From an uncultured delta proteobacterium (GTDB lineage Bacteria; Myxococcota; Myxococcia; Myxococcales; Myxococcaceae): 64,000 bases of DNA. The position numbers and the translations under genes are program-made. Positions within the stretch are counted from its first letter, which is position 1. Every line of letters begins with the position of its first letter. The stretch covers positions 320,001 to 384,000 of the forward strand of contig CAVZMH010000022.1 in assembly GCA_963776345.1 (NCBI GenBank), in the 5' to 3' direction. The notes beneath the pieces are model-generated. The model saw nothing but the letters and a program-made list of their open reading frames with translations. It searched no databases and had not been told where the DNA came from. This document shows, in pieces, positions 18,772 through 26,723 of this stretch.

Positions 18772-19635
18772 ATGGCCAACGTCGCGTTTCTCGGGACCGG
18801 TCTGATGGGCGCCGCCCTCGCGGAGGCTGCAGCGAAACGCGGCGATCGCGTGAGCGCGTGGAATCGCACCGCGGCCAAGGCCAGGGCCCTCGAGGCGTTC
18901 GGCGTTCGTGCCGCCGAGACGGTGCCGGAGGCCATCGCCGGTGTGGACCGCGTGCACGTCATGCTGGCCGACGACGCCGCCGTCGACCCGGTCCTCGACG
19001 CGGCGGGCGAGGCGCTGCGCTCTGCGCTGGTCATCGATCACTCGACCACCTCACCGGCCGGTACCGCCGCGCGCGCCAAGCGACTCGAGGCACGGGGAAT
19101 CGCGTTCCTGCACGCGCCCGTCTTCATGAGTCCAAGAATGTGCCGCGAGGCGGGCGGCATCATGCTCGTCGCCGGACCACGGACGGCCTTCGCCCGCGCC
19201 GAGGAGGCCTTGCGCCCGATGACTGGCCGCGTCGAGTACCTCGGCGAGCGTCGCGACCTTGCCGCAGCGAACAAGCTGTTCGGGAACGCGATGATCATCG
19301 CCATCTGCGGCGGCCTGGCCGACGTGTACGCGATGGCCGCCTCTCTGGCTATCGACGCGCGCGATGCGCTCGCACTCTTCGGCAAGTTCAACCCCACGGG
19401 CGTCCTCACCTACCGGGGCGCCGCGATGGCCATTGGCGACTACACGCCCAATTTCGAGCTGACGATGGCCCGCAAGGACGCCCGGCTGATGATCGATGCC
19501 GCCCAGGGCCGGGAGCTCGCCGTCCTGCCAGCGATCGCCAAGCGCATGGATGCGCTCATCGCCCGCGGATTTGGATCCGACGACATGGGCGTCCTGGCAG
19601 TCGACGCCGTGCCGAAGAAGTCGCCGCCTCGATGA
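18772..19635 (+). CDS. Beta-hydroxyacid (3-hydroxyisobutyrate-type) dehydrogenase family
   Basis: AFLGTGLMG, WNRT, DHSTTSP, KLFGN, FELTMARKD. Confidence 0.9.
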   Translation: MANVAFLGTGLMGAALAEAAAKRGDRVSAWNRTAAKARALEAFGVRAAETVPEAIAGVDRVHVMLADDAAVDPVLDAAGEALRSALVIDHSTTSPAGTAARAKRLEARGIAFLHAPVFMSPRMCREAGGIMLVAGPRTAFARAEEALRPMTGRVEYLGERRDLAAANKLFGNAMIIAICGGLADVYAMAASLAIDARDALALFGKFNPTGVLTYRGAAMAIGDYTPNFELTMARKDARLMIDAAQGRELAVLPAIAKRMDALIARGFGSDDMGVLAVDAVPKKSPPR

Positions 19636-19743
19636 ATCGTCAGACCCCGCAGCGTGTGCAGGAGAGAACGTCGGCGCGGAAGGTCCGCTTGACGGCTGTG
19701 CGTCGGGGATAGGCTTCGGCCCGAATCTCGAGAGGGGTGGCCA

Positions 19744-20310
19744 ATGAATGCTCTTCGCCTCATCGGTGCGCTGGCAGCCCTTGCTGTCGCTTCCCCGGTC
19801 CATGCCGAGGCCCCGGCCGGGCATCTGCTCGGTCCCGGAGACAAGGCACCAGACTTCACGCTCCTGAGCAACGACTGGAAGGAAGTCAGACTCGGCGATC
19901 TTCGTGGCAAGAAGAACGTGGTGCTCGTCTTCTACGTCCTGGCGTTCACCGATACCTGAACCAGTGAACTCAAAGCCTATCAGGCTGATGGGCCCAAGCT
20001 GGAAGCAAGCGACACGGTGGTGTTTGGAATCAGCAACGACAGTCCAGCGGCAAACGCGGCATACGCTCGCCAGATCGACGTTCACTTTCCCCTGCTGAGC
20101 GATCAGAACGGCAAGGTGCTCAAGCAGTACGGCGTACCGCTCCGTTTCAAGCAGGTGGGGGCCACGAGTTACGAACTGGCGCAACGCGCGACGTTCCTCA
20201 TCGACAAGCAGGGGGTCATTCGACGCGTCGAGCTGGGTGAGGAGGCGGTCGACCCGTCGAAGACCGTGAACGCCTGCAGCCTCCTCGAGCACCGCAAGCC
20301 GGGCCCGTAG
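19744..20310 (+). CDS. Secreted peroxiredoxin-like selenoprotein (188 aa, Sec72 at TGA 19957-19959)
   Basis: Track ORFs 19744-19959 and 20017-20310 are in one frame, separated only by TGA: GDKAPDFTL...VLVFYVLAFTDT-U-TSELKAY...VFGISND...FPLLSD...RATFLIDKQG. Confidence 0.85.
19975..19993 (+). promoter_or_regulatory. Putative bacterial SECIS hairpin
   Basis: GCCUAUCA-GGC-UGAUGGGC: 8-bp stem (one G-U), G-starting apical loop 23 nt after the UGA. Confidence 0.7.
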
Positions 20311-20479
20311 TGCGACGCGCGCAACCCTTATCCGACGATGTCGAGGATCAGCTCCGCGGCTCGGCGGCACTGGAGGCCAGCCGCGGCGAAGAGCCGAACC
20401 TGACGCATGGCCCCGCCGAGCATCCGGCGATAACGGCCAGCCGGGCGAGCGGGGTGGCTCGCCCGGCTGAACGGCCCGC

Positions 20480-23212
20480 TCAGGGCTGATGCGGCGCGGA
20501 GGTGACGGTGTTCACCTGGACGTTGTCGATGATCACCCCGCAGGAATGCCCGGGCCGGACGTCCGCGCAGGTGCCGATGAAGTCCTGGGCATACTCGAAG
20601 CGAAGCTGGGCGGTGGTCCCGGCCATGCCTGGCAGCCGGAGCCGGACGTGCTGGAACCCGTTCGACGCCCCCGCCCATGCCGACATGTCCTCGAAGTAGG
20701 CCGGGTCGCCATTGCGGGGAAAGTGCTTCGGATACTGCTGCAAGGCCCCGGTCTCGAACCGATCCTCGAACGCCTCCGCCAGCACCGATCTCAGGGTATT
20801 GCCGGTGGTGAGGTCGGTGACCCGGAGGAACAACCCGTCGTACGCCAGGATGTTGAAGCTCGGGTCGTCCTCGGTATCGTAGCAGATGTCGAAGTCGACC
20901 GTCACGTACTCCGCGTTCCCCGGCACGGCGAACGCGGGGCTGAAGAGCCGTTGCCAGGCCGAGCCGTCGGTGTTGGTGTGGAACGCTCCGTTCGATTGCG
21001 TCCCGCAGAAGCCCGGGCTGCCGGGCGACCCGGGCATGATCTTCCAGTTGATCGACGGGTCACCCGTCTGCGCCACCGCCCTCCACCCAGTCGGAATCGC
21101 ACCCGAGCCGTCGAAGCTCTCGGAGATCAAGACGGTGCTCTGCGGCGTGCCGGTGAAGAGGGTGTGGAGCAGCACGGTGCGCTGGTGGTCGTCGGTGTAC
21201 ACCTCGAGGCGCAGCTCGATCGGTGTCCCCGGGATGAACGACGGCCGGGTGAAGAGGAAGAAGGGAAGGACGTTCTGCTGTGCCTCACCAGGCTTGATGT
21301 CCCGCCAGGCCGAGATCCCGAGGAGCACGTCGACGCCAGGTGTGCTGGTCGAGAGGCGGGCCACCACGTCCCTCAGCTTTTCCTTGCTCAGGGTATTGGT
21401 CACGTAGTTCCGGAGCTCGACCTTGAGGGTGAAAAGCTCGCCGGGGTCGACGAACCCGTTTCCACCGCTGTCCTTGACCGTCTCCCCCTGCCAGTCCAGC
21501 GGAGAGGCGTCGAACTTGTGGTCCGCGCTGGGGAGGATCTGCACCAGCGCATCCGGCACCGTCAGGCTCAGGTCCGGCTGGCCATCGACGAAACCCGCGG
21601 GCGGACGGGAGGCCAGGGCGAACACGGGATAGAACTTCCCCTTCATCGCCACGCACTGGTTGTAGTCCCCCAGGTTCGGCTGGCTGGTGTCATTGCCCCA
21701 GCCCGCGTGGAACGGACGATCGTTGAGCGGCAGCGGCTGGCTCCAGTGGCGGCCACCGTCGTCGGAGAACAGGTAGGACACGTCGGTGAGATCCCCCGAC
21801 GCGGCCGTGCCCTGATCGTAATAGTGCACGAAGACGCGACCCGTGTCGTTGTCCACCGTGACCGCGGGGAACCACTGAGCCCGGTCGGCGCCAGGACGGC
21901 TGTTGAGAGCGACCGGTTTGTCGAAGTGGCGGCCGCCATCGGAGCTTCTCAGCAGCATGATGTCGGCGCCGTCCTGCGAGTCGTTGCTGGCGTAGACGAC
22001 GTAGATGTTGCCCCGGTTGCGTCCCCATGACTTGTCCACGGCCATCGAGGGGAAGCTGTGCACCCGGTCGTTCCCCAAGATGTAGTCGATGATGAAGAAC
22101 GGCGCGGAGATCTCCACCGGGGCGCCCCAGGTCTTCCCTCCGTCATCGGAGCGGGCGAAGGCGATGCTGTTGCTCAGGCCCCCCGGCAGCCTCCGCCAGG
22201 CCACGTAGGCGCGGTCCTTCTCCGGGCCGAACCGTGGAATCGAGCCCGTGCCCTCGCGGATGGTGGCGCTGATGATCGCCGCGCTGGCGAAGGTGGGCGG
22301 GGTGCTGGAGAGCACGTCGTCCGAGTAGGTGCTGAGGATCTGCGTGCCACCGGGCGCGACCGGGGTGAAGTTTGTCCAGGTCATCAGGACGCGGCCGGTG
22401 CGCCGATCGACGTCCATGAACTCCTTGTCCGCTGCATCGACCGGGAAGCCGTCGGGATCCAGGACCCCGCTCGGATTGGAGGCGGCAGTCACCTCGAAGG
22501 GGCCCTCCCAGCTGTGCCCGCAGTCGCGCGAGCGGTGGATACTCATTGTCTGGACGATGGCCGGCCCGAGCGCGAAGTCCTTCACCACCAGGAGGATGGA
22601 GGAATAGACGAAGTTGCAGCCGCCCAGGTACTTCACGTCGGGGTCGCCGAAGACCTGAGGGAACCCGAAGATGTCGGGCGGCCCGCCGGGCAGCTGCCCA
22701 CCATCGGTGAACGTCTTGCCACCGTCGTCCGAGTACATGAAGCCCGACACCGAGGTCTGAGCGAGATCGAAGCCACGGAAGTCGTTGAAGCCGACGACGA
22801 TGTGCTTCCCGGTGTCGTCGATGGCAATGGACGTCTCCGCCTGCCCGCCCCGCGGAAGCTCGCCCTCGTCGAGGCAGGCCGGGTCGGCCGAGCAGTCCGG
22901 CTCCTCGCCCCCCTCGTCCTCATCGCCATCGCTCGGAGGGGGTCGGCTCACGGCGGCGCGCCCGACCGGTGCGCCCACGACCGAGGGCGCCAGGGCCGCC
23001 TTTGCCGCCGGCGCGGCCAGCCGCATCGTCACCCCGCCTTGGGCCCGGATACGCGCACGCACTGTCGCGGCGCGCTTGCCCATGCTGGACATGCCGGTGC
23101 CGGCGTGCCCGGGCCTGGCCAGAGCATCTGGCGGCCGCTCCGCGAGAGCGACTCCCGGGAGTCCCAGCGAAGCCGCCAGCAACCACACCGCGAAGACTCC
23201 GGACCTGGACAT
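20480..23212 (-). CDS. Large secreted BNR/Asp-box (sialidase-like) propeller protein
   Basis: GGAGG RBS, signal peptide; repeated Asp-boxes YSDDGGKTF, RSRDCGHSW, RSDDGGKTW, RSSDGGRHF, FSDDGGRHW; GDYN. Confidence 0.85.
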   Translation of the reverse strand: MSRSGVFAVWLLAASLGLPGVALAERPPDALARPGHAGTGMSSMGKRAATVRARIRAQGGVTMRLAAPAAKAALAPSVVGAPVGRAAVSRPPPSDGDEDEGGEEPDCSADPACLDEGELPRGGQAETSIAIDDTGKHIVVGFNDFRGFDLAQTSVSGFMYSDDGGKTFTDGGQLPGGPPDIFGFPQVFGDPDVKYLGGCNFVYSSILLVVKDFALGPAIVQTMSIHRSRDCGHSWEGPFEVTAASNPSGVLDPDGFPVDAADKEFMDVDRRTGRVLMTWTNFTPVAPGGTQILSTYSDDVLSSTPPTFASAAIISATIREGTGSIPRFGPEKDRAYVAWRRLPGGLSNSIAFARSDDGGKTWGAPVEISAPFFIIDYILGNDRVHSFPSMAVDKSWGRNRGNIYVVYASNDSQDGADIMLLRSSDGGRHFDKPVALNSRPGADRAQWFPAVTVDNDTGRVFVHYYDQGTAASGDLTDVSYLFSDDGGRHWSQPLPLNDRPFHAGWGNDTSQPNLGDYNQCVAMKGKFYPVFALASRPPAGFVDGQPDLSLTVPDALVQILPSADHKFDASPLDWQGETVKDSGGNGFVDPGELFTLKVELRNYVTNTLSKEKLRDVVARLSTSTPGVDVLLGISAWRDIKPGEAQQNVLPFFLFTRPSFIPGTPIELRLEVYTDDHQRTVLLHTLFTGTPQSTVLISESFDGSGAIPTGWRAVAQTGDPSINWKIMPGSPGSPGFCGTQSNGAFHTNTDGSAWQRLFSPAFAVPGNAEYVTVDFDICYDTEDDPSFNILAYDGLFLRVTDLTTGNTLRSVLAEAFEDRFETGALQQYPKHFPRNGDPAYFEDMSAWAGASNGFQHVRLRLPGMAGTTAQLRFEYAQDFIGTCADVRPGHSCGVIIDNVQVNTVTSAPHQP

Positions 23213-23379
23213 GGATTTCCTCCCCACGCTGGAGTGCCAGCGTTGAACCGATTCGATTCACCCACCCTCGACGAAGCGGCCCAGTGCACTACCACTTCGT
23301 CGCGTGCGACGGTGGGACGATTCCGTGGTGAGCGCGAGGGCCCGTCCCGCCGCAGTGCGGCGTCCGCTGGCGGCCTCCG

Positions 23380-25289: not shown

Positions 25290-25420
25290 TTCCTCGCCGG
25301 GGCGCCCCCGACAGCGAACGGCAGCGATCCGTGTCCGCTTTCGCCGCTCGTTTCCGTCTTGAGGGGAGGCAAAGCCGCGCCATTGGCCTGGCGGTGCCTT
25401 TCCATCGAGGGAGACGTCAC

Positions 25421-26723
25421 ATGAGCGAATGGTGGATGCAGAGAACGATGGCCGTGGGCCTCGCGGTCATCGCGCTGGCGGCATGGAGCGCCGGGCCGGC
25501 CCGCGCCGGAGATCGAGGCCAGCGGGAGGAGCACGAGGAGAAGGTCCGCAAGAGGAGCGCCGAGAAGACGCTCTACATCTGGGCCGGTGACGCCGAGCGG
25601 GTCCGCCCGGACTTTCTGGCGGTGATCGACTTCAACGAGAACTCGGCGAACTACGGAAAGGTGCTGCGCACGGTCGCGGTTCCGCCTCCCGGCAACGTGG
25701 GCAACGAGCCGCACCACTGCCACCTCTCCACCGACAAGAACATCCTGGCCTGCGGCGGGTTGCTGAGCGTGCTCTCCGGCCAGAACGGCATCTTCTTCTT
25801 CGACGTCTCCGACGCCCGGAAGCCGGAGATTCCTCTTCTCCACCAGGGCTCCGAGCTCCAGCATCACCGACGACTTCCTGCCGCTGCCCGGCGGGGGCTT
25901 CCTGGTGACGCAGATGGGATCGGCGACGGGAGACGCGCCGGGCCGCGTGGCCGAGTTCGACCGCCACCTCCGGCTGGTGGCGGAGCATCCCGCCAACCCG
26001 CCCACCGATGGCTTCAACCCCCACGGCATCTCGGCCCGCTTCGACCTCGACCTGTTCGTCACCAGCGACTTCATCAATCCGGCGTCCACGCTCAACTCAT
26101 GGCCCGGACCGGTCGAGCTTCGCGGCGCCCTGCGCTTCTGGAACCTCTCGCGCCGCGAGATCGCGCGCACGGTCTTCCTGCCCGAGGCGCTCGGCTCGAT
26201 GGACGTGAAGCTGATCCCCAACGATCCTCACGGTCGTGCGGTGACCGCCAACATGTTCAGCGGGCTGGTCTACACAGTGGACCCCACCGACGGCAGCGTG
26301 GTGCAGTCCTTCGACTGCGAGGACATCGTTCCCCACGTCGAGGTCCCCGTCCCCGGTGGGATGGTGCAGCTGCTGGCGATGCCGGAGAGCGGGGATCGCC
26401 TCATCTTCGGCTCCTTCCAGGCCGGTCAGGTGGGTCTGCTCGACATCAGCGACCGCAGGGCCTTCAAGCAGCTCTCGGTCGTGAACCTGGGCGTCGGCGC
26501 CGGCCCCCACGACATCGACCTGACCGACGACGACGCGCGCCTGGTGGTCACCGACTACTTCCTCGACGAGGATGACTTCGGGCGGATCCACTTCGACGGA
26601 GATCGCAAGGTCCGGGTGATCAAGGTCACCCGTGACGCCCTCACCCTCGATACCCGCTTCGACCTGGACTTCAACACCGCCTTCGACCACCCGGCGCGCC
26701 CCCATGGAATCGCCATGAAGTAG
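25421..26723 (+). pseudogene. Secreted SBP56 (selenium-binding protein/methanethiol oxidase)-related propeller protein, +1 frameshift near 25826
   Basis: PDFLAVIDF...YGKV...GNEPHH; after removing one G reads KPRFLFSTRAPSSSITDDFL, then FNPHG, GAGPH, RPHG. Confidence 0.75.

Follow-up and report, generated by a model that had tools for sequence, protein, structure and literature searches.

The locus raises the question of whether an in-frame TGA ends a reading frame or specifies selenocysteine (Sec) and, if Sec is inserted, what the protein does and where. The window, that is, the whole 64,000-nt stretch of DNA that was analysed, contains one 188-codon plus-strand frame running from an ATG at 19744 to a TAG at 20308-20310, with a single internal TGA at 19957-19959 between the residues AFTDT and TSEL. 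Translation table 11 yields two separate ORFs of 71 and 97 aa, the splitting by standard pipelines that a first-pass annotation of this DNA had foreseen when it joined the two ORFs through the TGA. That joined frame is borne out: the read-through protein matches the Pfam AhpC-TSA family (PF00578) with 112.9 bits (cut-off 26), and the domain, covering residues 31-161, spans the TGA. Our reading as a whole, which we consider likely, is of an intact Sec gene encoding a likely exported peroxiredoxin, with a proposed redox cycle and a probable history of transfer. It draws on the following features.

19729..19736, plus strand: purine-rich stretch GAGAGGGG, 7 nt 5' of the ATG, a putative ribosome-binding site judging by its sequence
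19744..20310, plus strand: whole gene, 188 aa if the TGA is Sec, with the AhpC/TSA domain (PF00578 match and predicted model)
19744..19806, plus strand: predicted signal peptide, residues 1-21, ending in V-H-A (hydropathy heuristic; comparable leader in relatives)
19936..19938, plus strand: Val65, replacing the Pro of PxxxTxxC/U (alignment)
19948..19950, plus strand: Thr69 of the TxxU motif (alignment)
19957..19959, plus strand: in-frame TGA, putative Sec72, at the peroxidatic position (alignment with solved structures; conservation)
19975..19993, plus strand: bacterial SECIS-type hairpin of 8 bp, with a GGC loop lying 23 nt 3' of the UGA (conservation; model in the legend to Fig. 2 of PMC13188914)
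20185..20187, plus strand: Arg148, the catalytic Arg that peroxiredoxins conserve (120/120 homologues; aligned to solved structures)
20275..20277, plus strand: Cys178 in the last helix (171-183), candidate resolving Cys (120/120 homologues; 90/95 locus matches)

A 439-aa antisense ORF at 19051-20370 was treated as a shadow frame, homology and codon constraint both lying in the plus frame. Promoter and terminator scans of 19560-20520 returned 0 sites.

The TGA occupies the column of the peroxidatic residue, as the first reading had claimed. Its counterpart in 2ywn (FYPAAFTQVC) and in Mycobacterium tuberculosis AhpE (FFPLAFTGIC) is the catalytic Cys. In the 120 best of 4,987 protein matches, the residue at this column is Cys in 98 cases, Trp in 19 and Gly in one, and the remaining two are fragments that do not reach it. 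A tblastn search gave 95 matches at the 76 GTDB loci among the matches listed (at least 76 in all), and every one of the 93 matches covering the column carries TGA. Could the TGA nevertheless be a true stop in a pseudogene or split gene, or result from faulty assembly? Gene callers do split the gene, nine cluster representatives terminate just before the column, and one match with 81% identity (P0002) is the downstream piece only. However, the recurrence of TGA in more than one phylum, the intact flanking protein and the synonymous freezing of the hairpin described below largely refute this explanation, to which we give almost no credence. Contigs from two of four runs bridge the TGA with the codon unchanged, despite 9 and 24 differences elsewhere; those of the other two runs, X2 and X3, leave it unbridged. 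The proposed check of TGA against TGC or TGT came out for TGA in independent contigs and in orthologues.

The Trp residues at the column in 19 of the 120 homologues are what would be expected if UGA were decoded as Trp under an altered genetic code. Yet the matching DNA carries TGA together with the hairpin: in a metagenome scan for which the alignment was led by a Trp-type protein, TGA was present in 79 of the 80 loci considered (best 80 of 255), with one unresolved and no Cys-form DNA recovered, so the Trp in database proteins is best read as mistranslated UGA. The gene upstream ends in TGA, the sole UCA-anticodon tRNA found in the host is of the Sec type, and Trp would eliminate the nucleophile. 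The chance that UGA means Trp here is negligible.

Decoding as Sec depends on machinery for which the first-pass annotation had suggested looking, and all of it is present. The host genome (98% complete) encodes selA (510 bits), selB (309) and selD (379), all above curated cut-offs, as well as tRNA-Sec; its selD bears an in-frame TGA and hairpin of its own. SelB was also found in five of five other carrier genomes tested. Elsewhere in the host (G000:C15:34634-34960, minus strand), a second likely selenoprotein has a lipoprotein-like leader and UxxC in an AhpC/TSA-family domain.

The 8-bp hairpin with a G-led loop reported at first pass is likewise confirmed. It has the form GCCTATCA-GGC-TGATGGGC, starts 15 nt after the TGA and agrees with the bacterial SECIS model given in the legend to Fig. 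2 of PMC13188914 on four criteria: GGC loop, 8-bp stem, 23-nt spacing and energy of -9.5 kcal/mol. Homologous sequences were screened with a bSECIS-style filter of our own. Folding energy does not single the hairpin out from chance in any of three stretches (z -0.65, 0.27 and -0.34), and stretches of 74 and 104 nt favour a competing hairpin in which the GG loop is buried; the bases backing that rival fold are, we infer, likely covered by the ribosome at the UGA. We accept the hairpin as real because of synonymous codon freezing and pair conservation in the aligned sequences, not because of its stability. Across the 95 TGA-bearing matches, which include the gene's own copy and are related rather than independent sequences, Gln80 is CAG in 95/95, Ala81 is GCT in 85/85 and Asp82 is GAT in 92/92, while TAT occurs within the hairpin codons in 92/95. 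The same codons elsewhere in the family reach 67% (CAG), 15% (GCT), 37% (GAT) and 33% (TAT), and outside codons 73-86 no position of the same alignment exceeds 87%. The four top stem pairs are kept in 95/95; 87 of the 95 pass the filter, the other eight failing solely on energy. In a sister clade, both sides of the stem change (TAT..GAT to GTC..GGA) and the CAG-NN-TG core is found in 79/79 copies, of which only 47 pass the filter. The Gly codon immediately 5' of the UGA is GGT in 77% of homologues versus 16% elsewhere in the family, and this gene encodes Thr at that place (19954-19956); an effect of this context on read-through is possible.

The Sec-peroxiredoxin reading made at first pass is therefore supported by the TGA column, the SECIS-type hairpin and the Sec genes of the host. 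On this comparative evidence, there is very little doubt that UGA 72 is read as Sec, and the gene is almost certainly a selenoprotein of the established TxxU peroxiredoxin class, with standard recoding.

What the protein does is less straightforward, given the residue at position 65. The first-pass annotation had noted that Val replaces the usual Pro (FYVLAFT). The substitution is real but not peculiar to this gene, since the motif position is occupied by Val in 118/118 covering protein homologues, Cys forms included (among the best 120 of 4,987), and of the 92 TGA-bearing matches that cover it, 76 have Val, 16 have Ile and none has Pro. The best 150 50%-cluster representatives for a Cys-form homologue comprise 83 with Pro and Cys, 17 with Val and Cys, and nine with Val that end just before the Sec column. 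Because Cys-form homologues also have Val, the substitution is not tied to selenium; on these alignments, it is a clade-wide trait. Same-order relatives (L085-L089, L092 and L093) carry further peroxiredoxin lineages that contain TGA; the residue at the motif position in these is Pro, Val, Thr or Ile, and some of them share the same C-terminal Cys. A second Sec-peroxiredoxin paralogue lies nearby, mostly in tandem, at 18 of the 76 GTDB loci (L008, L013, L015, L018, L022, L024, L034, L042, L044, L046, L047, L048, L054, L056, L064, L066, L068 and L078), with YIKAFTxGU, YIRASTPGU or VLANTPTU as its motif.

Passages of PMC4749874 describe the motif Pro as absolutely conserved in peroxiredoxins. 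Of the elements in the PREX definition, the Thr/Ser and the distal Arg are found here (T69 and R148), whereas the Pro of Pxxx(T/S)xxC is not (Val65). None of the curated NCBIfam models reached its cut-off (bits/cut-off: PrxU 52/270, Prx-SUH 37/298, BCP 77.5/140, Tpx 53/123, AhpC 50/272). Strictly defined, the protein is no canonical peroxiredoxin; it most likely functions like one. Since the motif Pro is absent, peroxidase activity cannot be assumed, and a Sec-containing, exported but Pro-less protein might be a poor peroxidase and act in the envelope as a selenol/thiol oxidoreductase or a redox sensor instead. The replacement of Pro in every covering TGA-bearing match favours such a role, as do reviews that treat the Pro as essential (in the relevant passages of PMC4749874) and the statement in part of PMC8945050 that proteins without the motif are possibly inactive. 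Conversely, the Thr/Ser, the Sec/Cys and the Arg are all retained, and close Pro-bearing relatives (L086, L089 and others) share the leader and the C-terminal Cys. We hold the poor-peroxidase account to be unlikely, and peroxidase activity, predicted from the retained residues, to be quite likely.

The sequence with Cys in place of Sec was modelled with AlphaFold from a 64-row alignment, giving a mean pLDDT of 85 and a thioredoxin-type order of elements. Residue 72 lies at the beginning of helix 70-81, and Cys178 falls in the final helix (171-183). As noted at first pass, Cys178 is the only Cys of the protein and lies near its C-terminus; both Cys178 and Arg148 are invariant in the 120 best of the 4,987 homologues, and three tandem paralogues lack the C-terminal Cys. 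According to passages of PMC4749874, resolving cysteines in helix alpha5 make intrasubunit disulfides, and AhpE is among the proteins with such cysteines. From its modelled position, Cys178 is probably the resolving residue.

The signal peptide claimed for the protein also finds support. The N-terminus contains an Arg, a run of hydrophobic residues (hydropathy 2.69 over the best 10) and V-H-A. The hydropathy heuristic predicts a hydrophobic leader for 88 of the 94 locus matches and for 114 of the 115 proteins, a minority of relatives being without one. The host has 16 AhpC/TSA-family matches, among which this gene is the only one of the TxxC/U type with a clear leader. If the N-terminus were no working signal peptide, the Sec-peroxiredoxin would be cytoplasmic, and it is true that the leader was called by a hydropathy heuristic alone and that some relatives have none. 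Its presence in nearly all locus matches, against 0/4 of the host's Pro-bearing peroxiredoxins, makes a cytoplasmic protein very improbable, and we expect export with high confidence from the predicted leader. In Pyrinomonadaceae (L037, L052, L055, L058-L060, L062, L067, L069 and L081), the leader contains a Cys and is lipobox-like, and some of these copies may be membrane-anchored.

The proposed cycle of the exported peroxiredoxin would begin with SelB binding the GGC-loop hairpin and bringing Sec-tRNA to UGA 72. The signal peptide would direct the protein out of the cytoplasm, so that peroxide would be reduced in the cell envelope. There, the Sec72 selenolate, aided by Thr69 and Arg148, would attack the peroxide, and Cys178 of the last helix would resolve the selenenic acid to form an intrachain Se-S bond. 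This bond may then be reduced by an exported CxxC thioredoxin-like (TlpA-like) protein, itself fed by a DsbD- or ScsB-like protein of the host. Five other AhpC/TSA-family matches of the host are leader-bearing CxxC proteins, and of its two DsbD-family genes one has a long N-terminal extension and looks ScsB-like in sequence. These proteins are put forward as reductants by analogy with the ScsB-TlpA-PprX system of Caulobacter, as described in parts of PMC3322552, and we regard the chances of this identification as about even. A scan of flanking ORFs at 12 loci turned up no reductant gene conserved as a neighbour.

How did the gene reach this genome? A single marker, SelA, suggests a myxobacterial host, with 69% identity to a Myxococcaceae genome versus 51% to an acidobacterial one. 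A search of 60 relatives yielded a single close orthologue (87%), in G004, with the rest reaching no more than 49%; among the 12 same-genus genomes (66-100% complete), G004 is the only one with such an orthologue. Among the GTDB loci listed, the nearest named copies are from Myxococcaceae (79%) and a deltaproteobacterial MAG (76%), and most remaining copies are from Acidobacteriota, near 50%. A careful tree and AU tests were computed for a subset of 44 rows and 155 columns, a 126-row tree being run in quick mode only. In the 44-row tree, the four close myxobacterial-type copies form a clade (100/99) nested with Acidobacteriota, with which starred branches are shared at 96/88, 99/92 and 100/98. 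The AU test, for groups named after a tree had been seen, rejects both alternatives tried: a grouping of the four copies with the Sec-peroxiredoxins of the relatives themselves (p 0.011), and an acidobacterial-plus-unlabelled clade that leaves the four copies out (p 0.027).

The gene is less GC-rich than its surroundings, as had been claimed, at 61.9% compared with a median of 71.9% (as low in 0.8% of 3,532 crudely called ORFs), but its GC3 of 0.75 lies only at about the 9th percentile of the same ORFs. ORFs were listed at 13 loci, and 25 ORFs at 12 loci were scanned, which revealed no conserved neighbourhood; the neighbours in the window matched no relative's flank, that of the same-genus G004 included. 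Low GC and unshared neighbours fit transfer. Because the gene nests among acidobacterial copies and has a close orthologue in only one of 60 relatives, the horizontal acquisition proposed at first pass is supported: the gene belongs to a Val/Ile clade centred on Acidobacteriota and probably entered a few myxobacteria by transfer. Downstream (20480-23227, minus strand) lies a 915-aa predicted secreted BNR/Asp-box repeat protein. At 25331-26723, two ORFs of 414 and 272 aa overlap in different plus frames like halves of one secreted protein, which suggests a frameshift; the 272-aa ORF had no Pfam match.

The literature already contains Sec-peroxiredoxins as well as a peroxiredoxin that is exported, PprX. 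Sec-containing Prx (PF00578/COG1225), as described in parts of PMC13188914, PMC1088965 and PMC1794560, have the AhpC/TSA domain, the TxxU motif and the downstream SECIS in common with our protein, which differs in its Val for the Pro of PxxxTxxU, its predicted signal peptide and scores that fall well short of the cut-offs for PrxU and Prx-SUH. Table 3 of PMC1794560 includes three Sec-peroxiredoxins in Anaeromyxobacter dehalogenans, and the word 'periplasm' is absent from the main text of PMC13188914. PprX of Caulobacter crescentus, in the account given in parts of PMC3322552, is a periplasmic BCP/PrxQ reduced by ScsB via TlpA. It has an N-terminal export signal, as predicted here, and retains Cys and PXXXTXXC where our protein has Sec and Val, a comparison by description; the ScsB-like gene and exported CxxC proteins of the host also have their counterparts in that system. 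The best solved matches (E 3e-25 to 2e-20) are AhpE (M. tuberculosis Rv2238c, 1xvw) and the archaeal-type Bcp-like 2ywn and 3hjp. They share the active-site register, and some AhpE members have an alpha5 resolving Cys (passages of PMC4749874), whereas their aligned stretches contain Pro and no Sec, beginning after the leader and ending before C178.

No exported, Pro-less Sec-peroxiredoxin was found in the literature searched, which consisted of main texts and included few subscription papers. The combination of export, an alpha5 Cys and Val for Pro is apparently undescribed, and supplementary catalogues may list the clade as generic Prx. A bolder proposal, possible but rather doubtful, is that the Val/Ile clade constitutes an undescribed subfamily of envelope Sec-peroxiredoxins, common across soil Acidobacteriota and passed on to myxobacteria, that either has full activity or has shifted its preference to bulky lipid hydroperoxides. 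If so, the 'absolutely conserved' Pro of peroxiredoxins would be dispensable, and natural Sec/Cys and Pro/Val pairs would be at hand to test. The recoding mechanism itself is standard; the gene would add an envelope-located selenium branch to bacterial peroxide defence, one whose genes databases split or mistranslate as Trp. The clade, in which Pro/Val and Sec/Cys vary naturally on a shared scaffold, would make the role of the motif Pro directly testable.
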